Shown here piece by piece: positions 1 to 20,000 of a stretch of DNA of 20,000 bases. The DNA lies in contig MU271238.1 in NCBI GenBank assembly GCA_021432655.1, positions 108,021-128,020 on the forward strand, read 5' to 3'. The DNA is from Atractiella rhizophila (taxonomy: Eukaryota). Numbering within the stretch: the stretch's first letter is position 1; every line of letters begins with the position of its first letter. A model generated the notes under the pieces. The model saw only the letters and a program-made list of their open reading frames with translations, was not told the origin of the DNA and ran no database searches. The translations under genes and the position numbers were made by a program.

Positions 1-2997
1 TTATAATACCTTTTATCCAAATCGGCCGTCCACACTTCTTCCAACCTCAACATAGTCGTCGATGCTTTCCGTCTCAGCTCGCGATGGTTCAGTTCGTCCG
101 TCACGCTCAAGAAGGCGATAATGAACCAACTCGTGTCCATCACATCCAATTCACCCGCCAAAAGTCGTTCGCGCAGCGTGGCAATGTTCAGTATCGACTG
201 GTCAACATAGTCTGGTTTAGCTTCTGCTGGGCGACCTCGCCAGAAGATCAGCTTTGGATTCTGGTTCATCAGATCGAGGATAGAGAGTAAAATCTCGGTA
301 CGGATCTCTTCAGGCATGGCAGAGGAGATGGAACGATTATGATTGATCGCGTCTTGCTGTACCGCCGTTTCCTGTTCCCCATCCGGTATCAGAACCCGAA
401 ATCCAAGCCCTCTCCTGAAACAGTATAATAGGGGAATGGCAGAGGAAGACGTACGAGGAAGAGCATTCTGAGTGGGAGGGCGATGAGAGGATACATGGAT
501 TCCAGAGTAGGGCTCCATCGACTTGCGTTTTCCTGCGCCTTGATCCAACTGCATCCACGGATCGCCGCCAACTTGTAATCTATCGGACACCGAGGGGTGA
601 AGCATGCTTCCACCACGTCTTTCAAGTCGGTCTCCAGCATCCTGAGCGAGAGGATGGAGGCAAAGGCGTCAGTGAGGACGGAGACGGGGACGACGATGTC
701 TGCGTCTGCAGTGCTTCGGAACAGCTTCGTCTGTCCCTCTCACTGTCAGCGGAGGGCCAACGATGGGGAGGGAAGGAAGGGGACGTACGACGATCTCGCT
801 CACGAAATCTCCCACCAGCATCCTGAGGGACGAAGACACATCGGTGTAAGTAGCGGCGCGACAAAAGTCCACCAAACAGGTCGTAGCGAGGTCTGCCGTC
901 TTTGTGCTCTTCAAATACTTTCGCAGAGCGTCCATAAAACTAGCGGCCGTCTAAAAACGCGTCCATCCCATCCACCAAATCAGCATCCCACTCTCCAAGG
1001 AAGAAGAGAGGCACTGACCTTCTTCACAGTTCCCTGTCCCCTGACAGGACCCATCGCGTCTTGCTCCACCACCTTGCCTACGAGATCTGGACAACAAACC
1101 AAGAGCATACTCATGACAGGCCAAACGCCCACTCTCCTCTTCTGACTCTCCGCAATGCCAGCACAAATGTCGAAAATGATTTCGGCACTCTTCAAATTTC
1201 CCTCCTTCTCCCCCCTCCGTCCTCCATCGCGGGAATAAAGGCTCGAAAAATCGCTCGGAAAGTTCTCGACGTACGACCATATCGATTTCCTCAAGATGAG
1301 GATCAAGGCTCCCTGAGTCCTCGACCGAAAGTGCACGAAATGGTTCGTCAACTCCCTCAGGATTTCCGAAAGCCTCGACCTATTCAACGTCGCACATTCG
1401 AGCAACCTCAACTCTCCCAAATCCGAAACAGAGAGCAAATCCTTGCTCCCACTCCCCTTCCCGCTTCCCGTACTGGTCGTCGGACTCGCCATTTCCCTGT
1501 TCGCTCTCTCCATCCCGTCCTCCGCGAATCCAACGAACCGGTTTCGGAGCGTCATGAACACAATCTTCCAATTCGCGGCCGACACATAATTGATCACCCG
1601 TCCCATATCCCTCTGAATCTCCAACAGGAGCGCGTTCAGACTGACCTCGTCGATGGAGGCGTTCGAGATGTTGATCTTCTGATTCGCAGTGGATGAGGAG
1701 GAGCCGAGCAGGGAACGCCAGTTTTCGTATTCGGCGTATTGGCGTAAGAGGATGCAAGCTATGTGCACGATCCGTTTCGCCAGATCGGTGTCGAGCGGCG
1801 GGGGATCGACCCAGTCTCGTCGTAATGGATGGGGAGAGGAGGAGGAGGGATGAGAGTTTGAGGTGGAGGTGCTGTTTTTTGAGGGTTGGTGAGCGGCCCA
1901 GGAGGAGAAGAGGACGGAGGAGAGGACAGAGAAGAGGATCTGTTGGGAGTAGAGGAGGGGGAGGTCGGGGAGGATGGGTGCGTTCGGCGAGTGTCGCTGT
2001 TCCAGCACGCGAATCAGCATCTCTAATTTCCTTCAAATCTCCTTCTCAAGCATCATGTCATGCATCGTGAGTAAGAAAAAGCCTTCAGAATGAAGAACCA
2101 TCTCCGCAAAAAGGGTACCTTCGAAGCACACTCGCCATAAAAAGCCCAAGAAAGAAAAAAAAATGGTTTACACACCTTCCCAACCCCCGCCGCACCCTCC
2201 AAAGAATCCACGAGCCCTCTCACGACTCTCTCCAACGCCGCGCCGACGGCACCCATCGCGGCCTCCCTCTCCCTATTCCTCTCCGCATAATGTACCAAGC
2301 TCTCCCTAGTCTGTTTCAAGATCGGGTCCTCACCCGCCGGACTGACGCGACCTCCCGAAAAGTGGTGCCATCTCCTGGAAGACGGGGGGTACGAATTGGA
2401 GTTGTGGTTGAGGGGCAGACGGGAGTGGAGACGTTGGAGGAGGGAGGACAGGAGGCGATCTTCGCGCTCCGTTCGATCCGTCCCTCCTCCTCCTCCTCCT
2501 GCTGTCGTGGGATGGTTCGTCGGCGGAGAGGGAAGGTCGAGGGAATCCAGATCGACGTCCCGCTCCGCTTCCCTCTCCCTACCCCCCGCCCGCGGTCTGC
2601 CTCCGGTGGAAGCGAGGTGTGCGGACGCGGAAGAAGCGAAGGCGACAGCCGCGCTCTCTTCTCTCTTATGTTTGCCCGTCACCCCTCCCCCGGAAGAAGA
2701 AGAAACATTCGCACCACCCTGTCCGCGCGACTGCGATTGAGAATGAGAATGCGATTGCGATTGAGTTTGAGATTGGGACTGGGACTGGGATTGGGCGGCA
2801 GAGTTGAGGGAGCGACGAGAGGTCCAGTTGGTGCGGAGGTTGGGGAATAGCGAGCGCTTCGATCCCTGGTTCGCCTCCTTCTCCTTCTCCTTTTCCCTCT
2901 CCCTGTCCCTGTCTCTGTCACGATCGCCCTGAGAGTGGGAGGAGTGGGAGGCTGACTGTTTGAGCAGACGGGAAGAGTCGCGGTGGAGGTCTGGCAT
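1..2997 (-). CDS. Neurofibromin (NF1)/IRA1-IRA2-like Ras GTPase-activating protein, N-terminal part; spliced and continuing beyond the left window edge
   Basis: ATG at 2997. Approximate exons: 2997-2176, 1996-1018, 950-788, ~730-454, ~370-1. The translation includes SAANWKIVF, LRKSIWSYVENFPSDF, SAEIIFDICAGIAESQKRRVGVWPVMSMLLVCCPD and FMDALRK. These match my recollection of the NF1 N-terminal segment (WNWVENYPDEF...AEKLFDLVDGFAESTKRKAAVWPLQIILLILCPE...FLDSLRK). The GAP domain itself is not in the window. Confidence 0.9.
2720..2925 (-). repeat. Low-complexity coding hexamer repeats in RasGAP exon 1
   Basis: Imperfect hexamer runs (gggact, gattgc, ccctgt, ctcctt) encode SQSQSQ/SHSH and DRDRDRERE/KEKE tracts. 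Confidence 0.8.
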
Positions 2998-3305
2998 GTC
3001 CACTTGCTACTTCTCCTACTTCACAGGCTGATGTGAGAGTATTGCTGAGTGGAGGCAGAGTAGGGACTGGTTGATGTGGGGATAAGACAGTGAAAGGGGG
3101 ATGTCGTGTGTGAGGGAGAGGCTGAGCTGAGAAGGCAGGGTTGGTCGAAACACGAAGAAAAACTGGAATGATCGGGGAACTTCTCTTCCAAATACTGGCA
3201 ACCCATCAGGTCTTCTCTTCTCTGACGGTGGACCAATGTCTTTTCACTGAAAATATAAATGGAGAGGTATTATAAAAACGGCAGTAATAAAGCTACAAAA
3301 ATCCA

Positions 3306-4357
3306 TCACGAAGGCGGCGTTGTTGTTGTCGACGACGCCTCCTTCGCTGCAGAGAGCCCACTAACATCCACCTCCGCCTCGATCCTCTCCCTCGCCCTCC
3401 ACACCTTCGACTGCAAATAAAAGCTGCCCTGTCCGCCCTTCGCGCCCTTCGTCCCCTTCCCAGCCACCGCAGCGGCCGCCTTCTCCAGCGGCGGCGCATT
3501 CGTCGCGAAATACATCTCGTAGTTCTTCGCCATCCGCTCCAGCTCCACATTCCACTCCTCGATCGCGTTCGCCGGCGCCGTCGACCGGAATTGCTTGTCG
3601 AGGCCGCGCGAGATGATCTGCGAACGCACGTTCAGGATTTGGCAGGCTTCGTCTAGTGTCATGAGGTGGTGTCGAGTGAGAGGGGAGGCGGAGGAGAAGG
3701 AGGTCGAGGAAGTTGAAGCGCCGCCTGCTGAGGCGTCTGTGAATCATTTTGCGATGTCAGCATTATACTTTGAGGTCTGATATCATCTGGTATTGTAGGG
3801 AAAGCAACCACTCCAAAAGCAATCCACCCTCCATAGATCAATTCAAGAAGTGATCCTGTCACTCCACATTAATGTGCGATCTGAGAGATGGACATCCTTG
3901 CCCTCTTGAAGTAGATATGATTATGAACCACTCCTACTTAGGGAGATTCTACTCCAGGAATGATACTCCATGAGCAAAGAGCGAGGGTATTGAGTTATCA
4001 TCCACTCTCTGCCATATGCCCACAGCGTATTCTCCCTCTTCCTCTAATTCACAACACGGTCACATCCTTCCCTCACACACCCCACCCACAGAAACCCACC
4101 AGCAACCCACGATAAGAAACGAGAAACGAGAAAGAAATAAGAAACGAGAATGAAATAAGACACAAGAAAGGAGAAAGACGCACTCCTAACGGCCTGCTTC
4201 CCAGCCTCAGCAAACGCCTTCCCGACGATGGTCAGTCCGACCCAGACGAGCTGGGTGATGATCCGTGGTGCCGACTATGCACGACACACGGCAGCAGCGA
4301 GAGCGAAGCACGACGTAAATGTCACCCATTGCCTGCATGGGAGAGAGTGCGTACCAT
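3306..4357 (-). CDS. PAM16: Mitochondrial import motor J-like subunit Pam16/Tim16
   Basis: Exons are 4357-4355 (ATG only), 4274-4184 and 3736-3306. The translation is MSAPRIITQLVWVGLTIVGKAFAEAGKQAVR...MTLDEACQILNV...GSFYLQSKVWRARERIEAE, carrying the diagnostic Pam16 motifs. Confidence 0.95.
4105..4178. repeat. Degenerate GAAACGA/GAAATAA heptamer microsatellite in PAM16 intron 2
   Basis: gataagaaacgagaaacgagaaagaaataagaaacgagaatgaaataaga is visible directly. Confidence 0.7.
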
Positions 4358-4567: not shown

Positions 4568-6398
4568 ATGGCGTCCATTCCCTCAACCGCAGATCCAAGC
4601 ACAATAACCCTCTCCTCCCTCGACAAGCTGCACATCCTCACCCACCCCATCCTCCAAGTCAGTCCCCTGCTCCTTACGCCCCACGTAACATAACATGATA
4701 TTCACGCTGCGCTTCGTGCGCGTCGTGCGCTTTGGTGTGCCAGGAAAAGATGACGCTCATCCGATCGGCGGGCACGCGCGCGCCTGAGTTTAGACAGCTC
4801 GTCAAGGACGTCGCGCAGATCATTGGGTATGAAGCGGCGAGGGAGATGGAGGTCGAACAGCTGCCTGATGTGTGTCTTTTGTTTCTTCTTCTTTTACCGG
4901 TTTAGGGTGTGATACGGTTTTCGTTATGCGTATCTGTTCGATCGTGAGGCGTATTGCATCGTGGAGATGGCTGTTGCTTTGCTAGCATATCGATTAAAGA
5001 GGTCACGTATTGCTCCTCGAACAGTTGTCTCATAGAGCAGACAATTGCATCCAGGTCAAAAGTAGGAGATATCATTCGCGCATGCAAACAAAACAAACCA
5101 ACCAGAGCCAGCCTCGGGCTCCAGATAGGCTCCAAACATGGCGGTAAATATACCTTGTTCGGCGCGAAACATGCTCATGTGGTGTAATACTTCTACCACC
5201 CCATGGTTGACATCGTTCGCCTATTGCATCTGTTGGAATCTTAAAACCATCAATTGCTCGCTAACAGCAGCGTATGAATTTGTGAAGGGAAGAATAAGGA
5301 TCATTAATTTATCATCTGCACATACACAGTGAAGTGTTGCGTCTCTATATCCGTCCATGGTTTGCTTTCGCGACAGTCAACGCTTTTGGTCTGATAATCG
5401 ATCTTTCAATAGGCAAGCACACGAGCGACTTTTCCATATCGTGCTTGCAGCCCTTATCTTGAGACGTGTCATCGCATCTGCACTCTGTTTCCTGAGAGGG
5501 CGGAATCTACATTGTTGTGAGATGCTATGCTGTCTATTACCTCCCGCCTATGTTTCGCGCTCTTGTTCTCCTTCCACATCAGCATCCAAAAATAGGACCA
5601 ACGCACTGAAACTGATGATATTTCTTCAAATTTACAGTGTCAATCCCCAGTTGCAAAATTCACAGGTGCACGCGTAGCAAGCCGGATCGGACTGCATCCC
5701 ATCCTGCGCGCAGGAATCGGCATGACCGACGGTTCGTCCTCCTCATCGCCCTTTCTCTCTCCTCCTCTCCTTGATGCGCAACGAGACAGGCATCCTCTCC
5801 CTCTTCCCTAATGCTACTGTTCTCCATCTCGGTCTGTTCAGGAACGAGAACACGCTTGATCCGGTAGAATATTATAATAAACTCCCAAAGACGGTGATCG
5901 TAGATGAAGTCTTTGTACCTCCCTCCTCCCTTTTTCGCTTCTGTACCCGTTATCTTGTATTGACATGACGTGAGATGTAGATCCTAGATCCCATTGTCGC
6001 TACTGGTGGCACAGCAATCGCAGCCGTCCACATGCTTGTGCGTTATCTTCCTATCGCAGACTATATACCTTATCATGACGCGCTGACTTGGCATGCGATA
6101 CGAAACAGCAAGATTGGGGTATACCCGTAGAGAACATCAAGCTCCTCTGCCTCGTCGCCTCCTTCCCCGGCCTCCAAAAGGTCATGCGCGCCTTTCCCGA
6201 ACTGGAGATCTGGACCGCAGCCGTCGACCAAGAAGTGCGTCCTCACCCTTCCATCTCTCCCTCCATGCTCCATCCCTAGAATACCTTTTATTGATGTTGG
6301 ATTGGGTGGTGCAGCTTACGAAGGAAGGTATGATCTCCCCCGGACTAGGCGACAGCGGAGATCGCCTCTTTGGGACGGGCAGCTATGCGCAGTCGTGA
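4568..6398 (+). CDS. Uracil phosphoribosyltransferase (upp-like type), 7 exons
   Basis: Approximate exons: 4568-4657, 4744-4869, 5638-5731, 5790-5914, 5981-6037, 6108-6234, 6315-6398. Motifs are HPILQEKMTLIR, PEFRQLV, PILRAG, HLGLFRNENTLDPVEYYNKLP, ILDPIVATGGT (PRPP loop) and PGLGDSGDRLFGT. Confidence 0.93.
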
Positions 6399-6975
6399 TT
6401 CTTCTACCTCCCTCTCAGCTTTCACTCAGCTTTGTTTGAGGATGGGGAATGAGGAATGGGTGAAGCCTCCAGCAGAAGCATTGGCGAGACAGATGGTGAA
6501 GTGGTTGTGTTCTTAGATTCGCTCTGTTGTAATTTATTTTCTCTTCGCACATGGTTTTTCATGACTGGAGACTTGCAATAATCGACACGAGTGTGTCAGT
6601 GGCATGTGCCCTGTTGTCACCACACTCACTTGAGATTCACGTTCACGTTGTTTCAAAGCTATACTCAAAATTCCATAGTAAGTTTTTGATGGGGATTGTC
6701 GTTCATCCAGCCACACTTGAGCCTCCTTCTGAGGTGAAGGCTAGTAAAAAGTGGACCGCAGAGGTGATGGAAACAGCAGAGGTCTAGGAGAAAGCGCTAA
6801 ACATGATGGTGAGGAGGAGGACATTTGTCAGCAAAAAAAATCATCATTGTGAGAATACTCCTACTTCTGAGACTGTTACATGATATCAGTACACCCAGTT
6901 AGAGAAATCATGCAGTCATGGCCGTTCGTTACATTAGTCGAGGAATGGGCTGAAAGGAAACACAAATCACAACAA

Positions 6976-9224
6976 TCATGGTCCTTGCTGGTTCGCTGTC
7001 GGCGGGGCTGAATAAATCTCGGGATATCTGGACGGGTACGGATTTCCCCCATAGCCCTCGCGAGACTGCTGGTATCCGAAAGCTGGCGTCACACTCAGCT
7101 GGTGCCTATTCGTCATATCGGTGACCTGCAAAGCGTTCATTTGTCCCATCGTGAAAGGTTGGAAGAATTGCTCCTGATCCCCTTTTTCGTACGAATGCGA
7201 AACATCCGACGTTTGATAAAGTGTCGATGACCTGTCGCTAATGGGTACGCCCATGGGAGAAGAGATGGACTCTCTGTTTGGCGGTTCGCTCGGTGGCGGT
7301 CCAGCACGTTTGTAGCGACGGCGTAGGCAGAACGCGAGAAGGAGGATGAGGATGAGTGCCACAGCCCCACCAACCGCGCATCCCACGATTAAGCCGATGT
7401 GTGAGCTACCATGGTGGTGGCAAGTGCCTTGACAAGGATCATCGGTGGGGGTGTAGCTTCCCCCACTGATGGCGGCCGTTCCGTCCGTGCCAGGAAGGCC
7501 AGAACCAGCCAGAGAGCCAGAGTTGGGTTGGATAGCTTGAGCGAAACCAATAGAATGCGCTTTGTTGGCGTCAAAAGAGTAGGCGGTGTACCAGTTCTTC
7601 AGGAAGCCAGCACCAAGAACGGCCATGGGAGTACCATCGGTGTCTTGAGCCTGTCACCCACCCAGCACCACAAAGGATTAGTGAATAAACTGGACAGCGA
7701 AGGCGGGAGACATACGTCCGTGCTGTAAACGAAAAAGCTGCACGAGTCGCTATTGTTTTTGTAAAAGAGATCGAGAGGAGCTATGTCTACTTAACCGTGT
7801 AAACATCGTTCCCCAAGAAGCAATAGGCAGGGAAAAAACCCACCGTACACCTGCCCGAAAATATCGAATCCCAGCCGCATCGTCGCCATGTTTGCACAGG
7901 TCGTAGTAACCTGGTATGCAGGTCCCCCACTTCCGATAGTCTGAATCTGGGCCCCAATCCCTTGTGCGTAGGCTTGGAGGACGGACGGTGGGAGAGCCAG
8001 GTCATATCCTGCGGCAAGGAGAGCCCTACACTTCGTTCCGTCAATCGTTCGACCCTTGTAGGTCAAACCAGAGGTATCCACAGCCCAGTACGAATCGCTC
8101 GTCACCGGTACCCACTTCAAATTTCCTCGGTAATGCTGTAAGTTACTGCAACCGATACAGATTTCTCCACCATCTGAATTGCTATCATCGAAGGTACCGC
8201 TCGAGTCGGTGTTGGCGATTGTGTTCTGGATCGTATAATCTCGTGCGAAGAAGATCGAAAAGTAGTTGTGATCGAGCGTCCCTCCGTTTCCAGCGACGAG
8301 ATTCTCCATGAACGAAGTTTGATTGCTCTGTGCTTGCGCGAACCCAAACCCAATGATCCCATCCCCCACCTGCTGCTCAAAGTTTATCGTCGTGTGGTTG
8401 GCAAGGCCGAAGCCGGTATTAGGGATGGTGAATCCAGCGATGGTCAGTGTATCTTGGGCTACGAATCCGTCCGTTGTGTACCCTTTCAGGTTTCAGGAAA
8501 TGCATCAGAAAGGGGAAAGGTGGAAATCCAACGGACACACCGTCACCATAGCTTATGTTCCTAAATGCAGAAGAATTAGAGTGACTGAATGAAGGTGAAG
8601 GATGAGCAGACGAACCAAGGGATTTGGGAACCGACAAAAGTGGAAGAAGCTGACGGTTGGAATTTATGATGGGCAGTGGTCTACACAGTATGCCAAACTT
8701 GTTTGTCCTCCGCCGTAGGAGCAAAAGCAAACGCACGTTAGCAGTCGGGTCATCTAGGAATTCATCAGCTCCTTAGAGAACCATGGGCCAAACTGAACTC
8801 ACAAACCCACAGATCAGATGATACAGCTTCCCGCACTTGAGTACGTTTTTACCGCGGAAGAGGGGACGTACTGTCAAACTGGAGGCGAGGCATCGCATCA
8901 GTGCCGCTTGAAGGTGATGCAGGAGGAACTCAAACCTGGACAAGAAAGCTTTGAGGTGGTGTACCAAGCTGCACCGTTCCAGCGTAGATTCTGTCAAGTG
9001 GAGGGCCTGTTTGCAATCATTAGAAGCTGTGCTTGCATGAAAACGTCTTCAATCTTTGACATACCATTGGTCGCAGGCACCGTTCCGGAAGCTCTCTTCC
9101 ATGCTCTCTTCCCCTGCTGCTCAGACCAGATCCTCTCTGAACTCTTACGCCTGCTGGTCAATGAGATAGTATTGAGCGCAGCAGCCACCTCCAATCCTGC
9201 TAGGAGGTAGAACAAGTTTTTCAT
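6976..9224 (-). CDS. Pepsin-family (A1) aspartic-protease-like type I membrane protein, probably catalytically inactive
   Basis: There is a signal peptide (MKNLFYLLAGLEVAAA). A1 motifs include YAGTVQLGTPPQSF, FDTVSSDLWV (via a 7-nt microexon at 8878-8872), DGIIGFGF, GGEICIG, YWAV and VLGAGFLKNWYTAY...IGFA. A transmembrane segment IGLIVGCAVGGAVALILILLLAFCL is followed by RRRYKR and a ~110-aa tail. Confidence 0.85.
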
Positions 9225-10739
9225 GACGAATAATTAATATCCACAAGAGTTGATGGAGTGCCGTTGCTGGCAGGTTCAGGGGGGGAATATTGGCACAAAC
9301 AGGCTTTTGAAGGTCTCTGTGATTCCACGAACGGAGAGATAGCTGTGCCAAGTTAAAAGTTGGAGTGCATACATTCTGTGCGGGAAATGAATGGGAGGTG
9401 TCGATGTTTTCCTTCACCCACTCACTGCCCCAGCTTCCATTGTCCAAAGAGGAGGAGACTCTCCGCGTAAAATGCGGCGACGCTGTTCCATCTGGATCTA
9501 TTTGATCTCAGCCTGAGCTCTGGAGCCGATTCATCACAAACAGGAACCGTGTCTGCAGACGCGGCCGATGAATTAATAATGTTGAATGTTTGAATGTTTG
9601 ACGACCAACCGATCTCATATCAAGAGCAAGTTGTGTTGCCAATTCATTGCTCGCAAGCAATGCCATGCGTGCTGCCTCAGCTCAAATCGAGGAAACTTTT
9701 TGAGAGCGTCAAAACGCAAAACGCAGGACATCCAAACCATGTACGTACGTCAAGGGAAGTCCAGGCAGCAACGAAAACAAGGAGATATTCGCCTTCGGCA
9801 ACGAGGTCTGAGCTGGTGTGACTGAGTTCAGCCAGTGGGTCGGCGGCAATTAGTTGGAGTTGTGTGGTTGAACCCACTGGATATCGTGACTTAACATTGA
9901 CATTCGAACCCAGTCGTGCTGATTCTCCGAAGAAAGTAGACCACCTTCACCTTCATGTGGCCGTCTCTAGTGGGGTGGACTTCAGTGAATTCAATGCCTC
10001 AGCTTCTAGTGGCTCGATTTCTAGCACGTATCGTCCAACGTTACAGAATCTTTTATGGAATGACACTCTTCTGACTCCATTATTGAAATGCAGTCTACGA
10101 CCTGTCGACAAGCCATGGAAGGGTTTTGAGCATAGTTCAGCTCCAAAGCCCCATGTGAGCCATGAAAGCATGCAAAAGTTCAATCTGAACTGAACCAAAC
10201 TCCTAAACCCTTGAATCCATCGGGATCAAGAAGAAGCAATTGGACTGTCTCACCGCCGTCATAGCGGCCGCAATTGTCCAGGCAGGTCCTGGATCTGGAT
10301 CTGGGGAATATGGATCTGGGCACTGGGGAGCCGCGTGGACAGTTGTGAGGACGGACCAAGCGAGGAGAAGAGCACGTAGAGGGAGAGGTCGTCTGATGGT
10401 GGCGAGCAGGGAGGGCTGCGTCCTCCCAGAGGCTCAGACGCCGCTACCAGCATCACATCCTCCATCTTCCGAGTTACGGTGAAAGACTCGGCATGGGCTG
10501 GTGGCTGTGCGAGGAGGGGAGGGGGAAGGTAGTGAAAGCGAGGGGACGGGGATGGAAATCCAGTCTCTTCTTTCAGTTCCAAGTGGCTAGGTAAAAGCAG
10601 AAATGCAAATGTCTTTTCTTTTCTACGCTGAGCGAGGCAACTCTTCCCATACAGCAGTTTCAGAGTTGCAAATGAGCTTGCTGCGGTGTCGCGAACAAAG
10701 CACCATGAGTAGCCGGACGACGGCGTATCAGCGACCCGG

Positions 10740-12440
10740 CTAGTTACCACTCTACGATACTCTATTAGACAGCCAAACTAGGCATACCGTTACGAACGAA
10801 CAGACGCGCTGCCTTGTGCAGGAATAAGGTAACCCTGAGCATTCAAACAAGTATCTGAGTCTGTTTTATGGGACTTAAAAGTCGTTACGCCTTCTGTTTC
10901 CCATTATGAACTGAAAAAGACCTCACAATATTGAACGAGAAAGACGGACCGCTTATTCTGCCGCAGCATAGGCAGAGAACCTGATCTTCTGGTCCCGGAG
11001 CAGGTACATAGAACCACGGCGTGCCCTTGCAATCGTCTGACTTCCTCATGTGCGTCCAGTAAGACATGAGAGAGGCTTTTATGCAAAGAATGAGGGGATT
11101 TATGAGAGATGGTAGAGCGCGTACAGTACACCGTCTCACAACCTGTGCATATCATACGTTCTCGTTGGTGGATCCAGCGGTAATGCCTACGGTCACATGA
11201 TCAGGTCCCTTCCAGTTATGCCTTGCAGGCTCACCGAAGTAATGTTCCTTTCTCTTTAAAATTAGCCGAGCATTTTGGGCAGGTGTGGTAGTCCTTCATT
11301 CGCTCGCGAAACTTCGCGTACAGCGCCATCCTTTCCTCGAATGATGGAATGTGAAAGCATCGTCCAGATTGACAAGCTGGAGAACTGCTCTCGACCCGAT
11401 GATGCTTATATTCATCTTCCAAGTCTATAAAACGGTCATTCATGGCATAATATCAGCTCAGGTCCACACACCAAATGATGTGTCGCAGCCAGAACATATC
11501 CAATTTGCTTTTGTTTGGTCTCTCGGAGCAACGACAAGACGACCACTCCTACACTCCAATGGCGCGGTGTGCCAGGTTTGGTGTTTTCGCACAGTCGACC
11601 CCATTGCTAGACAGATCCTCAGTAATAATAGGCGAATGATCTGCAGTAAAAGAAACTTACAAAAACCTTGGCCACAGCCCGAGCAAAGATGTGAAATAGC
11701 ATCGTCATGGACGATTCGTATGTGTCTTTATCACAGAGATCAGCTCTTTATCAGAGAAGCTTGATAAGAATCCTACGTTGACAAATGACTACGTCTTTTT
11801 GCACGGACAGAGCAATGAGGGCACTGGTGCGGGTATTCCGCCGCTTTTCCAGCACGTTCCTCGATTAATTGCTCTGCTCGACGTTTACGGCCTGCTTTGA
11901 CATCAATGGTTTGTGCAGAATGCAAAAATTATCCTCACCCTCTCGAACTTGAAATCTTGCCATTAAATAATCTAATGATTTCCTCTTCATTTCAGACTCC
12001 TCAGCAACCTGGATTTTCCGCATTGCGCGGCGAGGTCGAGATAGTAGTTCATTGCGACGATGAATTGTTCCTAGAAGTGATGGAGGATCAGAAATCTTCC
12101 CAAATATCGCTGCGGGACAGACGTGGTTCTCTGCCTTTCTTCTTCTGCGGATTCTCGATGCTACGATTTACCGTCCTGTAGAGGTTTAGAGCCCAGATAG
12201 AACATGAGCTTAAACTTCGACATACGATTTCTCAGTTTCCGACTCCTTTACATTTTGTTCACTCTCAGTTCCAGAACTTGCAGCGTTGTGTGTAAGCCGT
12301 CGGACGATGGTGACGTGTGACGGGGAGTGTAGCACGCCAAGGAAAGGGAATCTGGGAACCTTCCCTGCTCCATAGATCAGTTTAGAACTGGTGAGGTGTC
12401 GAGAGCATGCAGGATTCAATACATGGCGAATGGGTTGCAT
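10740..12440 (-). CDS. Six-finger C2H2/CCHC zinc-finger protein, paralog A (about 11 exons; start and last exon uncertain)
   Basis: The spliced frame is open throughout: ...RTIHRRNELLS...LDYLMARFQVREG...YPHQCPHC...HIRIVH...CSGC...H...C...WICSGC...H...C...CPKC...HYRWIH...CTGC...H...C...CLCC...H...C. It is colinear with paralogs B and C. The stop is at 10790 if unspliced or 10740 if a last intron is used. Confidence 0.8.
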
Positions 12441-12908
12441 GAACTGCGTAGAGAGTGAGCTTCTCCCCTACCAAAAGCGCTATAAAACACATTAGGAGAC
12501 TGCCTATATCTATTATTATCATAAACATTTTGAGACTCTTCTTGGTAACAACGTTTCTTCTATTATATCATTCAAGTGAACTCCAACACAGCCAGGTTGC
12601 GACATGAATAACCAATGTCGCACTTGCAACTGACAGCAAAGGAACAAAACAAATGAACTGAGAGCAGATACTCACTTAACATCAACATGTCGTCACTGTA
12701 AACTATTTAGTGTGTGTAGCATATAGCAAGTGGACGGAAACGTCCATCCGAGGTTGTTGGGTGGAGCACGTGAGGAACCAGTAATGTTATCGTTTTGAGC
12801 CCTTACACCTCCCACACCATGCACAATGGAATGAAATGAATTATACCATCATAACCCATATGCTTGCCCCTTTCTGAAGCTGCGAGGAAATTTTATTCTG
12901 AGGGGGGT

Positions 12909-13008
12909 AAAAAAATGCGTCCCATACTGGACTCGAACCCTTACATGAGTTACAGTAGGGTTCAAGGGGCCATGCCCCTTGCGAGTGGGTTGGGGGGCCT
13001 GAGGGACG
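12909..13008. other. GC-rich multi-hairpin structured element (candidate small ncRNA or transposon-end remnant)
   Basis: CGTCCC/GGGACG encloses ACTCG/CGAGT, which closes two hairpins (AACCCT/AGGGTT and CAAGGGGC/GCCCCTTG). The minus strand has a B-box-like GGTTCGAGTCC followed by T7. Confidence 0.4.
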
Positions 13009-14510
13009 AAGGCCGCTGATGCACTTGTCGAGCGAAAGTGGAACTGTATAAAACATAACATGGGTGAAGTTCAGTTGAATCTCTGGCGCATATGCATCGA
13101 CCGATGATCGCTCAGACAGTAATTTTCCGTATTATGGTGTGCAACGTTGTATGAGCATCCTCCATAATAAAATTGGTGAATGCCTACTATACATCAAGTA
13201 ACATCAGACATCTTTGAAGGTTTTCTACTATTTGATTGTAGAGTCCTTTGACGGTAAAGCCAAGGCAAGTCGACGGGGAGCTGGAAAATGAAAAGTTGGA
13301 GTACTTGTGGGACAGTACAGATTTGCTTATCCGTCTCTTCATCAGTCCCACGAACCGATCCAGCTTGGACTGCCATCAGGTTAAGAACCACCGAACACAA
13401 CGCTGCATCCGCCAACTTCCGTGAGAGCTCAGGGATCGTGGTTTCATCGTCGGAGTTCCATTGATAACGGTGGTTAGGGAAGAGGTTAGGAGGAGAGCGA
13501 GGCGGAGGAGCAGGGAGAAATCTTCGATAGAGAGCAGGGAGGTGCTGCGTGCGCTTAAGTTTCGAGAGCCGCTTTCAGCCTCAGTCTCCTCTGAGATGCT
13601 CCGCTTGTTCTGCGTTCAAATTTAGGCTCTTTGAACAGTCTTCTCCCTCACGCTGAGCCCGGGAAGTGGGTTTTTGTGGTGCCTGTTTGTGACATGAAGG
13701 CGTCTTTGCAAGAGAATTTGCGGAGGGTGGTGGAGGGTAGAGACGACTCATAGGAGGAGCTTATGCATAGTCAAATGTCGCGGTCCAGTTCCTTGGGAGT
13801 GGGCCGAGGGAGGAGAAGAGAAGGAGGGCGACGTAGAAATAGAGTGCGTATGGACGAATCGCTGATTCTACCACATGCAGATAGTATCCACTTTGTCATG
13901 AGCCCTCAGAATCCTCAAACACTGCTGCCTCCCTTGCTACTGCGTTTAAAGTTTGCTTTGAATTTCCGTCCGCTTCCCAGTTCAGTTCTCTCCTTTGTCA
14001 GTGGACCGTTTAGAGCGCCTTGCCAAGCGCATTTTGGGGAATTGGGATACGCAGAACCCGCTATTGGATTGAACGGCATGTCGGTGATAGGTACGTGTCG
14101 TCTTTGTTTCAGCCAACTTCAGTTCTTTGGGATCACTCTCGCTTACAAGTGTGACCTCAGTCAAATTTCCTGAGACCAACCTCTTCTTGATCTGTTGCGA
14201 CTGTGTACTGCTGTTTAAACCTGGGACCCAATACGTCTAATTGGGACGTGGAAGGACCTTATATGCTAGACTCATGAGGGTGAGCTTGGGCCCAATATGC
14301 TTTCCCTTTCATCTATCAAAGCAATCATTGGAAGGGGACAGAAACATGAAAGCGGATATCCATTTTCTGTTTATTTCGCTTTGTGACGCCGTGACCATCC
14401 TATCCATGGCAATTTTGGGACGTTGCGATGATCCAAAACGTCAAACTGGAAGCTTTGTGTTGTTGCGTGTTCTCTAACCCTGCCTTTGACTGAATGAGCC
14501 CGATATAGGG

Positions 14511-16199
14511 ATGCTTCGTAGCCTGCCTTTTCGCGGCCTGCACCACTCTCGAGCGCGTTTCACCATCATCAGACGGTTTGCACACAACGATAGCGGCTCT
14601 GGAATTGGGGGGGAAGAGAATGTGAAGGAAGCCGAGGTCGAGTTTGAGAAACCTTTTTCGGAAGTGTAAGCTTTACCTGTAACGCTGGCCTGGCTGACAT
14701 TAAACTCTTGTAGGAAAATAAACGCAGGCAAAAGGAAGGGTGGGCGTGCCCTAGGACCACGTCCGTCCTGTGCTAGTTCGAGAATCTCTCTGATTTGTCA
14801 TCACTTTCAGGAACAATTGAACTTCGGAATAAGCTACTGTCCAATGCTCAGAACCATCAAAGACGTGAAAAGCTCGCGAAATCGGCATTCAAAGGAAAGT
14901 ACATTTTGACTGCATTGCAAACGTCTTTGCTGAACAATTCGTTCAGATGTGGAATTGGCTCGGTTTCAGTGGCGGCAGGGTAAGAACAACTTGCATCCTG
15001 CAACGTCTATTTAACCGGAACAGGTCATACGCGCCGAATAATGCGATTAGTTGAAGGACGAGCAGGGAAAGTCGAGGAATATCCTCATGAATGCCCCCAT
15101 TGCCCTTTCCGTTCGAAAGTTTCCGGGAATTTAAAAAGGTAATTTTTATGACCAAGGTTCATGCAGTAAAACCGATCCCTCTGATGCAGCCATATCCGAA
15201 TCAATCACGATGATGCAGTGTCGCATCTCTGCTCCGCTTGTGGTCGCGGTTTTTGTGCGTTCTGTGTTAATTTTGCTCACATCATTAAGCTGTAACTCTC
15301 CGTACGAACCTTCCAGCAACAAAGACGAATGCTCGAAAACATCAAATCCAGCGCTTTACGCCGCTGGAGTGTCGCAATAGTCGTTTCATAGTTGCTCCGA
15401 GAGACCAAACGGGGGCGAATTGGATCTGTTCCGCTTGCGAAGTATCTTTTGGTGCGTCACCTGTGAGTCGATAGTGAGCTACGTTTGACTTGCTTGTAGA
15501 ATCGAAAGATGAGTATGAGCGACATCGAAGCGAGAGCACCTTGCCAGCTTGTAACACCGGACGATCCCTTCACATTCCTTCCTTAGAGGAAAGGTCCGCT
15601 ACATCCTCAAAATTCGTGGAGCAACTGAAGAAGTATCCGACTTGCCCAACATGCTCGACTGCTTTTCTTAACAAAGCAACGTTGTACAAGTGAGCCGCAA
15701 GGTAAAACTCCAACGAGGTAGCTCATGGATATAGGCACCAGCGCATGGACCACCAAGGAGAGCGTGTAATATGCACTGGTTGCAAACAGCTGTATGGTAC
15801 GCGTTCCACCATAACCTCATGGATTCTCATCATTATGAGCGCGAAGCTACGGACCGTGCTCTTCGGCAGCATCAGACGAATGCAGATACATGTAGCCGTG
15901 CGGGGTGGTTTTATGTCCCTGCTCCCAGACCAGGCTGCCAGATTCTCTGTCTATGTTGCGGTAAAATATGGGGTATGTCCCTTTTTGATATCGTCATGTC
16001 GTTTCCAGCTCATGGAGAGATGGTAAATAGATACCAGGAAGGCATTTAATTCCCATAAAAGAGTCTCAAACGCGTGTTTCAATGCCGAAGGTTATGGTAT
16101 TGCTAGTCGTACCACGGAGGGTACGTTTTTTGGATGATATGCATCTAGGTGGACGTTGTGTCTAATGGAGGCTCACAGAACGGTGACTCGTTTCCGTAA
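14511..16199 (+). CDS. Six-finger C2H2/CCHC zinc-finger protein, paralog B, with mitochondrial-presequence-like N-terminus
   Basis: ATG 14511 gives MLRSLPFRGLHHSRARFTIIRRFAHND. The fingers are CPHC..HIRINH, CSAC..H..C, CSAC..H..C, CPTC..HQRMDH, CTGC..H..C and CLCC..H..C. Intron positions match A and C. The 3' end is approximate. Confidence 0.8.
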
Positions 16200-16418
16200 C
16201 TGACAGGCTCAACCGCATTCTGAGCTTGCGCAGGAGCTTATTTGCATTTTTGAATGCACCATCGATGAGGCTTGTTTCGACTGTCTTAGCTTCGTCCGCG
16301 CTTGCATTCTGAAATCCTACACGTGCCAATGCGTTGGTCTTGCACAATGCAACGTTTGACTCTTCCTCCTCCCAGATACGAAGATAGCATTTCCACAAAA
16401 TTCATCCCCATTGACCAG

Positions 16419-16770
16419 CTACACCTTGCGTTTTTGGCGGTCCAAAAGAACGTCAACTTCGCTTTTGAGACCGTCCACTTCCTTCTCGAGAAGAGCACGC
16501 TCCTCCTCCCAACTCCACCGCTGTTGGTACACACGTAAACCGTAGAAGGTGAGGAGACAAACTCCAAGAGGTAACGCCATCGAAGGAATGATGTCCCTGT
16601 ACAGGGAGAGATGACGCGATGGCGGTTTAGGAGAGGATGTTGTCGACGATAGACGCCGACAGAGGAGTAGCGAGGCACTACATCTGTATCCAGTTCAGAG
16701 CATTGAACAAGGCTGAAAGAAGTACCCACTGAGACGCCGTTCTTCGGGAGAGAATGGAGGGGGCCACCAT
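16419..16770 (-). CDS. Small (101 aa) single-pass mitochondrial membrane protein with C-terminal coiled coil, Ina17-like
   Basis: Exons 16770-16730 and 16683-16419 flank a 46-nt GT-AG intron. The translation is MVAPSILSRRTASQCSASLLLCRRLSSTTSSPKPPSRHLSLYRDIIPSMALPLGVCLLTFYGLRVYQQRWSWEEERALLEKEVDGLKSEVDVLLDRQKRKV*. It has a presequence-like start, one hydrophobic helix and heptad repeats. The family name comes from remembered resemblance only. Confidence 0.7.
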
Positions 16771-17108
16771 GATTGAGGGAGAATTTCCGTCTTGAAAAAA
16801 TAAGACTTCAAGCTTCCTCCTCCAGACAGACAAAACACGTGCCAAAACTGAATATTAATTTGATGTTAATTGGGATTAAATCGATATTAATCCATGGTGT
16901 TTAAAATTCAGATCACCTCCTCGGTTCCCCTCTCACCCCTCGGCTCCCCGCATGCTTCCGTCCATCTTCCCACCTCTTGAATATCCTCCCAAATAATACG
17001 CATCTTCCCTCTTAACCGCATTAGTAGACATAACACGCTGCGCACGGTCATTTCCGCCACTTTTCGTAATATACAAAAACTTAGGGTGGTATCTGGATGA
17101 CAGGACCT

Positions 17109-18368
17109 GGGAACATGTTGACTTCAAGTATGTGCCTGCTCCATTGTTTTTCCAGCGGTTCCCTTTCTTTTAGCATAGCCAGACCTTTTCTCCCTCCAAA
17201 CTACTGTATAACTTTCGCACTAGCAAACAGCTTGACAACTGCCACTTTTCTAAAGGATCTACAACTGGACTTATGTTGATTTTATGTTGAATGAACACGC
17301 GAAGTGGCAGAAGGATTAGAGTTTTAAATGTAGTCCGGTTTTGAGCCCTCCGCACTCCTGAAATTTACCAGTGCTAACTGAAAACTTATTGTCGAAGGAA
17401 TGTTTCGCAGCATGACTTTTCGGGTCCCAATCCTCTCCACGTCACACTGCACGAGCATCAGACGGCTGACTCAAAACCGTACCACTTCTGAGACCGGCGT
17501 TGAACAGCCTGTAAAGGAAATTGAGGTCGAGAAGCTGTCTGAGGAAATGTAGGCGTTCAATAGCGTAAATACCAGCCAGTCGCTAACTCCTTATAGGAAG
17601 CATGCAAATGCGGACGACAAGGAATCACCGCGCAAGTCTTCCCGGGGATGTAGGCCATTTCGCGATATCCTTCCTGACAATCGTTCTGAGGCGTTGTCGT
17701 CTAGTAACGATTCAACGTCGCAATGAGCTGATGTCTCAGGGAACATGTTGACTTCAAGTATGTGCCTGCTCCATTGTTTTTCCAGCGGTTCCCTTTCTTT
17801 TAGCATAGCCAGACCTTTTCTCCCTCCAAACTACTGTATAACTTTCGCACTAGCAAACAGCTTGACAACTGCCACTTTTCTAAAGGATCTACAACTGGAC
17901 TTATGTTGATTTTATGTTGAATGAACACGCGAAGTGGCAGAAGGATTAGAGTTTTAAATGTAGTCCGGTTTTGAGCCCTCCGCACTCCTGAAATTTACCA
18001 GTGCTAACTGAAAACTTATTGTCGAAGGAATGTTTCGCAGCATGACTTTTCGGGTCCCAATCCTCTCCACGTCACACTGCACGAGCATCAGACGGCTGAC
18101 TCAAAACCGTACCACTTCTGAGACCGGCGTTGAACAGCCTGTAAAGGAAATTGAGGTCGAGAAGCTGTCTGAGGAAATGTAGGCGTTCAATAGCGTAAAT
18201 ACCAGCCAGTCGCTAACTCCTTATAGGAAGCATGCGAGTGCGGACGACAAGGAATCACCGCGCAAGTCTTCCCGGGGATGTAGGCCATTTCGCGATATCC
18301 TTCCTGACAATCGTTCTGAGGCGTTGTCGTCTAGTAACGATTCAACGTCGCAATGAGCTGATGTCTCA
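17109..18368 (+). repeat. Direct tandem duplication, 2 x 630 bp (17109-17738 and 17739-18368)
   Basis: The units are identical by eye except catgcAaAtg versus catgcGaGtg (17606/18236 and 17608/18238). The ORF track shows the same 61-aa ORF 630 bp apart. Confidence 0.97.
17400..17751 (+). pseudogene. Truncated 5' duplicate of zinc-finger paralog C (exons 1-2 and the start of exon 3, no fingers)
   Basis: ATG 17400 gives MFRSMTFRVPILS. At the repeat junction the frame reads ...NELMSQGTC then TGA. Confidence 0.7.
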
Positions 18369-19724
18369 AGCATTCCAGACAGAGCGGAGATATCAACCGA
18401 AGAGCAAATTCACAGCAAAAGGAAAGTGGTCTTTGGCTGCATTATAAGGTTCTGCTGAAAGGTGAATTCAGACTACGACTTGACCAGGTTTCAGCGGCGG
18501 GAGGGTAGGAACAATCTTCCGGTCTGCACAGGCTAACATGGAAACAGTATTCAGGCGTCTAAGAAAAGGATTGAGCGAACAGCGTGCTGGAAAGGCAGCG
18601 GAATATCCTTACGAATGTACACATTGTTCCTTCCGCGTGAAGTCAAAAGCTCAGCTGAATGAGTAAATTTTCATTGGGATCCCCTGCAACAATACTAAAG
18701 AAAGTTTTCATGCAGGCACATACGAATAATTCACGATGATGCTGTTTTATATCTTTGCACAGGCTGCGGTCTTGGTTTCTGTGAGTTTCCTCAGCGCCGA
18801 TCGTTCATTAATCACTCTTTTCAATTGATGTAGCCAAAACAAAAAATGCGAAACAACATCGGGATAAACGGTTCACGCTGCCGGAGTGCAAGACTGGTCG
18901 TCTGGTCTTCGCTCCCAAGGATCAAATAAAAGCCAATTGGATTTGTTCCGCCTGCGAAGTATCTTTCGGTGGGTTGACCTCTACGTTGATCTTGAGCTAT
19001 AAATCACGCGTTTGCAGATCTAGAAGATGAATATGACCGGCACCGTAGAGAGAGCATGTCTCCAGGTTGTAAGGATGGACGATGCCTTCACATTCCTTCA
19101 TTCAAGGAAAGATCTGCGCTCTACGCAAAGTTTCGGGAGCGAATGAAGGAATACACGACCTGCCCAGAATGCTCCGCTGTTTTTCTGCAGAGGACATCAT
19201 TGCTCGTGTGAATCTAAAGCTGACTCTAATATAAGGGCTAACGATTTAGCCAGGCATGAGCGTCAGCACCATATAGGAGAGCGTAGAATATGCACAGGTT
19301 GCAAACAGGTGTTTTGTACGTGGTCGACCATTTCTGATAGGCTCTCCTTAACCTGAGCGCATAGCTGGAACCTTGAAATGCTCTCCTGCAGTGCATTGGA
19401 AAAAAATGCCTGGATGTGCGGGCAAACCGACCTTTCATCTTCCTCCTCCAGGGCGGCATGATCAGATTCTTTGTCTGTGCTGCGCCAAATTATTCGGTCA
19501 GTTCTTTCCGTGTGGTCTCTCGCTGCTTCATAGAAAGGTAAACAGAAAGTACGACGGCTTTCGAAGCCCATAAAGGGCCTTCAGAAAGGTGTCAAGACGC
19601 AGACCATTACCTTGTCGCCGCCAATCCAGGCGCAGAGGAACATGTACGTCACGTCGAGTATGCTTACCAAGAGGGACATCGCAATTGAGAGAAACGGCAG
19701 AGCGACGCCGCGTCGAGCCCCTGA
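18030..19724 (+). CDS. Six-finger C2H2/CCHC zinc-finger protein, paralog C, with mitochondrial-presequence-like N-terminus
   Basis: ATG 18030 gives MFRSMTFRVPILSTSHCTSIRRLTQN. The fingers are CTHC..HIRIIH, CTGC..H..C, CSAC..H..C, CPEC..HERQHH, CTGC..H..C and CLCC..H..C. The stop is at 19688 if unspliced or 19724 if a last intron is used. Confidence 0.8.
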
Positions 19725-20000
19725 AGCACTGAGCAAAAGAAGAGTCACATTTTATCCTTCCGAAGAGACGATCAAGCTACCCACACGATACCAGCCCGAA
19801 CATCAGCTGAGCGGTTGAGAATTGGTTGGTGGAATCTTGCCGTGTAATACCATGAAGCCGCCTTGATATCAAGCGCTCGTTTAATAAATTGATAGCTGTA
19901 CTGTGAGACAAAGCGCAATCGTTCAAGAAAGTCATCGTAGTAGGGTACTTCGTTATAATAAGATAGTATACAACGTCAAAGGCTTCACGCGAATCTTCTC

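Follow-up and report, generated by a model that had tools for sequence, protein, structure and literature searches.

A species-restricted family of six-finger zinc-finger proteins with conserved presequence-like leaders in Atractiella rhizophila

We analysed a window of 20,000 nt from the genome of the root-associated fungus Atractiella rhizophila (GCA_021432655.1, contig MU271238.1, positions 108,021 to 128,020 of the forward strand), the second half of which holds three paralogous genes, here called A, B and C, for proteins with an arginine-rich N-terminal leader and an array of zinc fingers. A first-pass annotation of the window had reported three paralogs with six Cys/His fingers each, and we find them at that position, A on the minus strand and B and C on the plus strand. 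The three genes are intact and spliced with all frames open, and the proteins are 45–49% identical in pairs. The assembly comprises 51.5 Mb in 1998 contigs, and coordinates refer to the window unless another contig is named. A second haplotype of the window lies on contig C74 and is 91–98% identical, depending on the block. Gene models were made with a custom spliced aligner and checked against contigs of four public runs (X1–X4), three of which are listed or guessed as RNA; X4 is without a record, yet its contigs are spliced.

Gene A (10740–12688, minus strand) encodes 377 amino acids in 12 exons (12688–12676, 12364–12226, 12175–12123, 12070–11939, 11891–11777, 11725–11661, 11606–11472, 11424–11235, 11186–11125, 11075–10950, 10893–10802 and 10751–10740). 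The RNA joints listed for it lie near 12172–12228 and 10748–10802, with a further piece at 11234–11424, and its other allele appears in the database as P0002, a model from which the N-terminus is absent. Gene B extends on the plus strand from 14078 or 14511 to 16186 and gives 374 or 369 amino acids (369 from the ATG of exon 1); its spliced model (exons 14509–14665, 14714–14760, 14811–14894, 14947–14979, 15024–15138, 15190–15254, 15317–15451, 15500–15689, 15735–15796, 15847–15972, 16031–16120 and 16179–16186) is supported by RNA joints and pieces, and the database model P0004 agrees with it from finger 1 onward. Gene C, on the plus strand from 17115 or 17745 to 19727, has 13 exons (17745–17757, 18028–18178, 18227–18279, 18335–18421, 18472–18504, 18548–18662, 18716–18780, 18834–18968, 19018–19207, 19254–19315, 19365–19496, 19546–19643 and 19701–19727) and an open translation of 385 amino acids. 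All 12 of its introns are confirmed as joints in RNA-type contigs, two of them read across a 630-bp duplication described below, and the model agrees with the one that the database holds for the other allele, P0001. For A and B the same contigs confirm part of the introns, and at least 15 joints were read in all.

A count of copies across the genome extends the family to seven paralogs, A, B, C, D, F, G and I, where all paralog and copy counts are lower bounds. A, B, C and D lie within ~25 kb, F is on the same contig C74, and G and I are elsewhere. Identities are 45–67% among A–F, 29–34% to G and 27–31% to I, and the intron positions in the finger region are common to the paralogs. Six of the seven are present on both haplotypes, B has a third copy, and I was found once. 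The third copy of B, with its flank, is on contig C1419 (L018; 2973 bases) and matches the window over 3 kb at 95.5% identity. The ends of contigs C863 and C884 (L034, L017) each carry a part of the second copy of D, with unrelated sequence before the 3′ part, owing to either an insertion or a break in the assembly; the C884 locus is not a separate paralog but the 3′ part of this copy, its 5′ part being on C863, and it was left out of the allele counts. A further candidate, the locus on C1002, proved to be an unrelated two-finger C2H2 gene. Paralog I (contig C318, L035 3675–4377) is the most divergent and has one 5′ exon with an LHPD motif. The idea that this motif, which resembles the one in J-domains, marks a J-like or DUF4460 (TCAIM) domain is unsupported: it has no Pfam match, and a DUF4460 scan gave no match anywhere, with the controls also silent.

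The family had been proposed to be restricted to its lineage, and this is supported, as we found no relative outside the species. A search of 5.8 billion proteins returned none; among 50% representatives there were nine matches, seven of them to non-family proteins, and the three of these that we examined are generic zinc-finger or repeat proteins. Atlas matches for P0001 are to generic C2H2 clusters with only 111–147 shared features. Relatives were likewise not found among metagenome contigs and viral contigs, an absence that is weak evidence because eukaryotic, intron-rich genes are read poorly by these scans.

The start Met residues assigned in the first-pass annotation need correction, since a 13-nt exon 0 supplies the ATG. 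In C this exon (17115–17127, plus strand; second copy at 17745–17757) is followed by a 270-nt intron and is confirmed by RNA: a GT-AG joint from 17127 to 18028 in X4 adds five residues ahead of the Met called earlier. For A, where the codon matching that Met is AAG and an exon 0 is therefore required, homology to C points to 12676–12688 on the minus strand, 13 nt with an ATG and a phase-1 donor before a 311-nt intron, which is also present on the second haplotype. B has a candidate exon 0 at 14078–14090 on the plus strand (13 nt, before a 418-nt intron) that is kept in all three copies of B, and a similar 13-nt phase-1 exon is predicted upstream of F and kept in the other copy of F. D has no clear exon 0; an in-frame ATG stands directly before its exon 1. 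A contig of X4 (14394–14665) starts inside the first intron of B and keeps part of it, so B can also begin at the ATG at 14511, which is in frame in D also. The transcript form that includes 14394–14510 carries short upstream frames, the last of which stops just ahead of this main ATG. As to the possibility, raised in the first-pass annotation, that transcripts start downstream of exon 1, we find this exon transcribed in A, B and C.

A tandem duplication of 630 bp with 2 mismatches (17109–17738 and 17739–18368, plus strand) lies at the 5′ end of C and spans exons 0 to 2 and the start of exon 3. It is missing on the second haplotype, and is either haplotype-specific or an artefact of assembly. 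If it is real, its first copy codes only for the leader and the spacer, with a stop at 17749–17751. B and C also contain a non-canonical GA-AG intron, at 14895–14946 in B (52 nt, plus strand; removed in contigs of X1, X3 and X4) and at 18422–18471 in C (50 nt, plus strand; removed in X4). The donor of this intron is GA not only in B and C but also in D, F uses GC and G uses GT, and A lacks the intron altogether; at other loci it lies at 4614–4667 of L014, 4954–5006 of L015 and 4397–4439 of L031. GA-AG introns have been reported from two animals, in the same context (AG before, A after) as here (PMC7072748). Four of the six database models of family members (A, B, D and F) begin downstream of the leader, and this unusual intron may be the cause of the truncated models.

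The six-finger arrays of A (10847–11823, minus strand), B (15092–16077, plus strand) and C (18616–19592, plus strand) follow one plan, namely twice the series C2H2, C2HC, C2HC. Only fingers 1 and 4 are of the classical C-x2-C-x12-H-x3-5-H type, and fingers 2, 3, 5 and 6 are C2HC, with 6–9 residues between the His and the last Cys in the alignments. Introns stand at matching places in both halves of the array, and a profile alignment joins the corresponding exons (probability 85.7, E 5.5e-6); we conclude that a module of three fingers was duplicated to form the array. Short linkers occur only in pairs 1-2 and 4-5, in degenerate form, and the other linkers are ~17–30 residues long. An AlphaFold (AF2) model from five sequences has a mean predicted local distance difference test score (pLDDT) of 63.7, with ~70–87 over the fingers and low confidence in the first 120 residues; it contains strands and a helix for all six fingers and an extra strand after each C2HC finger. 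A wide structural search, dominated by the low-confidence helices and hence uninformative, gave no Z of 5 or above and no solved chain that matches the whole.

Classical Kruppel-type arrays are defined by three or more tandem fingers with TGEKP-type linkers, and the family has no such run. With the polydactyl C2H2 DNA binders (CTCF, PRDM9, ZFP568, ZBTB24; PF00096, PF13894) it shares beta-beta-alpha fingers, the C-x2-C-x12-H core and helices that vary between paralogs. It differs from them in that only two of its six fingers are C2H2, TGEKP linkers are absent, the linkers 2-3, 3-4 and 5-6 are long, a presequence-like leader is present, and whole-chain TM-scores are ~0.15. We regard the family as a genuine variant of the polydactyl zinc-finger proteins, restricted to this species and with an address that is probably mitochondrial.

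Divergence between the paralogs is concentrated on the finger helices. At helix positions -1, 2, 3 and 6 the paralogs share 23% identity, whereas the other non-ligand columns reach 54%; none of 3000 permutations gave so low a value, and dN/dS at these positions is ~0.9. Among A–F the mean dN is 0.40 and the mean dS 1.05, and dS is saturated against G. For alleles, the pooled counts use five of the seven pairs, those with the third B copy being set aside, and the power is limited with no more than two haplotypes; within this scope pN/pS is 0.17 in the finger array and 0.62 in the leader, and the helix positions show two replacements at 268 sites, both in G. Between alleles, then, the finger array is under purifying selection, and the duplications are old events. 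It follows that the paralogs have diverged on the helix surface but are conserved today. Because positions +1 and +5 of the helix vary just as much (15% and 23% identical), this divergence does not point specifically to a DNA code.

This last result is one of the reasons to consider that the proteins are adaptors, mitochondrial or not, whose C2HC fingers, with their added strand, contact proteins or ubiquitin-like partners instead of nucleic acid. Four of the six fingers have the long-spaced C2HC form with the extra strand, and the helix of finger 3 is acidic in A–D. Such a role is hard to square with the basic surface and with tandem pairs that match DNA-bound arrays, and the Pfam scan found no protein-binding finger family above cut-off; we think it quite improbable.

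The age of the duplications also bears on a comparison made in the first-pass annotation, which had loosely likened this family, as a duplicating one, to pentatricopeptide repeat (PPR) or restorer-type expansions. A picture of genes that change fast and still duplicate is not supported, as the paralogs are old (dS ~1 or saturated), their arrays are under purifying selection and six of seven are on both haplotypes. Restorer-of-fertility-like PPR clusters are reported to have high within-species diversity and to be under diversifying selection (PMC7380019). In both cases the paralogs are clustered and code for a modular array of the nucleic-acid-binding kind that is directed to mitochondria, a destination that is predicted here. 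In contrast to the restorers, the present family has low allelic variation and no PPR motifs (no Pfam match to PPR in any of the six database models). Purifying selection between alleles together with old duplications thus removes the analogy to a restorer-type arms race.

The mitochondrial prediction comes from the leader. The first-pass annotation had quoted acid-free, Arg-rich leaders ending in RR(F/L), and these are present in A (exon-1 part 12294–12364, minus strand; 28 residues with exon 0, net +5, no Asp or Glu, ending RRL), in B (14511–14579, plus strand; net +6, no Asp or Glu, ending RRF; covered by contigs of X4 and partly of X2) and in C (exon-1 part 18028–18098, plus strand; 28 residues with exon 0, net +5, no Asp or Glu, ending RRL). 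In A, B, C, D, F and G the leaders are 23–28 residues long with a net charge of +4 to +6. Pooled, these six contain no Asp or Glu in 158 residues, against 27 in the 131 that follow, and have 29 Arg to 3 Lys. They end in R-(R/P)-(F/L) or R-L, then T/A/R-H/Q, with Arg at -2/-3 of the predicted site. G keeps such a leader though unlinked and only 29–34% identical, so that the N-terminal conservation the first-pass annotation had proposed to look for is found in six paralogs down to ~30% identity, with a weaker version in the seventh. Where the ATG of exon 1 is missing, an in-frame start lies further upstream: A and F have exon 0 for this, and D has a new ATG. The seven allelic replacements in leaders, all in F and G, add no acidic residue. 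A search of the leader exon against the genome matched family members only; the exon was thus not visibly taken from another gene.

Matrix presequences of the MPP/Icp55, R-3 type are described as N-terminal, 20–60 residues long, Arg-rich and acid-poor, with Arg at -2/-3 from the cleavage site and a positively charged amphiphilic helix; they direct import and are cleaved (PMC7723863, PMC6769257). In length and position, in Arg-rich and acid-poor composition and in the Arg at -2/-3 of a predicted cleavage site, all six leaders agree with this description. The feature of being acid-free for at least 23 residues is by itself common, as 131 of 588 ATG-started open frames in ~77 kb of the genome have it. 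The full rule (acid-free, at least four basic residues, R-site) selects 15 of the 588, six of them family members, which leaves 9 of 582 unrelated frames (1.5%). In neutral simulations at matched divergence (identity 0.33–0.39; observed 0.36), the whole pattern was kept in 3, 2, 0 and 0 of 3000 runs. The combined leader pattern thus shows constraint, of a kind that the test leaves unspecified. In our judgement the leader is probably a working presequence.

Several observations count against import. The simulations used a star tree and criteria picked after the data had been seen, and all six leaders stayed acid-free in 40–662 of 3000 neutral runs. Lack of acidic residues alone is weak evidence, because 3.6% of single-base replacements give Asp or Glu and P(0 of 61) is 0.11. 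The best 11-residue hydrophobic moments of the leaders (0.41–0.71) are not above shuffles of the same leaders (p 0.20–0.92), a test that is itself weak because a neighbouring INA17-like control is not above its shuffles either (p 0.81). The leader of paralog I, taken from a provisional model of its 5′ exons, is less typical, with 39 residues, one Glu and a K-R-F end. No mitochondrial DNA (mtDNA) turned up in the assembly, the single match in a COX1 search being weak and below cut-off. Basic clusters resembling nuclear localization signals (NLSs) lie within the mature part in A, D, F and G, and D carries an RGRP motif, which we take to be AT-hook-like. Finger pairs 1-2 and 4-5 match CTCF, PRDM9 and ZBTB arrays by sequence (best E 1.8e-14) and fold (best E 7.4e-8), and the solved-structure matches near the top are all nuclear DNA binders.

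These matches, to which ZFP568 is to be added, would be expected if the proteins are ordinary nuclear zinc-finger regulators of a species-restricted family, in which the leader is a disordered tail passed down within the family, a signal for the nucleus or nucleolus, or a peptide with a regulatory role. Pfam zf-C2H2 or zf-C2H2_4 matches above cut-off in five of six database models fit this explanation, as do the Kruppel-like spacing of the two finger pairs, the NLS-like clusters in four of the seven paralogs scanned, the motif in D and the lack of amphipathic excess in the leaders. The 1.5% of unrelated frames that pass the leader rule fit it too, as the paralogs are not independent draws. It does not readily explain why a leader with almost only Arg as its basic residue, free of acidic residues, with an R-x-F/L site and a sharp acidic boundary should be kept in six paralogs at a mean identity of 36%, nor why in-frame starts ahead of the leader were kept or regained, and the basic-cluster patterns match neither B nor C nor those parts of I that were scanned. 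We consider a purely nuclear role somewhat unlikely.

The two sets of signals could also belong together. ATFS-1 carries a bZIP and Rox1 an HMG domain for DNA binding. ATFS-1 of C. elegans, with a weak targeting sequence and an NLS, and yeast Rox1 are reported as DNA-binding factors shared between mitochondria and nucleus (PMC9649602). The proteins described here might likewise be ATFS-1-like sensors of import or Rox1-like dual-location factors with a modest presequence, which upon failed import would be led by their basic clusters to the nucleus, where the fingers regulate genes. A presequence-like leader, NLS-like clusters and a DNA-binding-type array do occur in one chain, weak amphipathicity suits a weak signal, the same logic is established for the two known factors, and the tiny first exon and the GA-AG intron are, speculatively, possible control points. 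Engineered mitochondrial zinc fingers carry a nuclear export signal to make their location exclusively mitochondrial (PMC5027515, PMC8202187), so dual location is a live option. However, ATFS-1 and Rox1 are single genes with other DNA-binding domains, whereas here both types of signal are predicted in a seven-member zinc-finger family; seven paralogs with different helices exceed what a sensor needs, and the basic clusters vary in position and are absent from some paralogs. On balance we rate a shuttling role as unlikely.

We tentatively favor the reading that the proteins are matrix-imported nucleic-acid binders with paralog-specific targets, to which we give a little less than an even chance. 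For the first-pass proposal of mitochondrial RNA- or DNA-binding proteins this means that lineage restriction and leader conservation speak for it, while its analogy to duplicating, restorer-type families has to be dropped. The precursors would enter the matrix through TOM/TIM23, and MPP would cut the leader of 23–28 residues two residues after the Arg, followed by trimming by Icp55. In the mature protein an acidic spacer would be followed by a basic helical segment and then by the two modules of three fingers, which would take up zinc once in the matrix. Mitochondrial nucleic acid could then be bound by finger pairs 1-2 and 4-5; the long spacing in the C2HC fingers and the long linkers make RNA a somewhat likelier target than DNA. 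That zinc fingers can act in this compartment is indicated by engineered C2H2 arrays that function on mtDNA (PMC5027515). Paralogs with differing finger helices may serve separate mitochondrial targets as stable, lineage-specific factors of gene expression.

Such proteins would work in a mode like KH2F1 or the mitochondrial AP2 proteins (mtAP2s) without belonging to either group. KH2F1 is reported as a 58-kDa protein of trypanosome mitochondria with eight C2H2 fingers, bound to the helicase KREH2 and active in RNA editing; its fingers stand in clusters of two and three, and it is predicted to be an RNA binder and adaptor (PMC13692030). Both are multi-C2H2 proteins with a mitochondrial location, reported there and predicted here, but the present family has six fingers and not eight, and KH2F1 was absent from all our search results, which makes it an analogue at most. 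AP2 domains, known from nuclear transcription factors, are reported to be reused as lineage-specific RNA binders in the apicomplexan mitoribosome, with a location established by experiment and conserved across Myzozoa (PMC11652630). Here the fold is different, and the family is that of one species, with a location predicted from sequence.

The gene next to C gives weak support for a mitochondrial role. It is an INA17-like gene for a small mitochondrial inner-membrane protein (16419–16770, minus strand; 101 amino acids, one intron at 16684–16729 modelled with an RNA joint), arranged head-to-head with C, and 344 nt separate its ATG from the exon 0 of that gene. Atlas matches it to INA17_C clusters (score 0.93, 208 shared features), and it has no significant Pfam-A match. 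Its own leader ends in a similar RRL site. Between A and B, the segment 13451–13708 is ~77% similar to stretches near both copies of D (1561–1784 of L014 and 5046–5280 of L017) and has no Pfam match; it looks like a decayed piece of a co-duplicated gene. Contigs of three runs match 12793–13028 with many differences and loose ends, and this segment is probably a small dispersed repeat. The remainder of the window holds, by Pfam, PAM16 (3306–4315, minus strand), a uracil phosphoribosyltransferase (about 4570–6400, plus strand) and an aspartyl protease (about 6976–9225, minus strand). A long gene at 1–3006 (minus strand) has no Pfam match and presumably resembles the N-terminus of neurofibromin/Ira, and the 3′ part of a transcribed gene converges on C (19770–20000, minus strand; no Pfam match for the two frames tried).

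Among the open-access papers listed in our searches we found no description of a multi-finger C2H2/C2HC family in fungal mitochondria, and no open-access paper was found that brings together C2H2 fingers, presequences and fungi. Among the open-access matches listed that name Atractiella rhizophila, none is on its genes as judged from the title or the start of the abstract. The leaders of such families are easily hidden by annotation, as in the four of six database models here that lack them. In its boldest form, which we regard as doubtful, our interpretation would be that seven private six-finger proteins each read a different site in mitochondrial RNA or mtDNA, possibly in cooperation with other lineage-specific nucleoid proteins of this genome, and so form, in a fungus, a counterpart of the PPR proteins built from zinc fingers. 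Shuttling, if it occurs, would make them candidate ATFS-1-like sensors in a fungus. Should import prove real, the family would be one more case, besides KH2F1 and the mtAP2s, of a DNA-binding fold of the nucleus put to use in the gene expression of an organelle. Its members would then be zinc-finger arrays suited by nature to import and to work in the matrix, in contrast to the engineered ones that are given an export signal.

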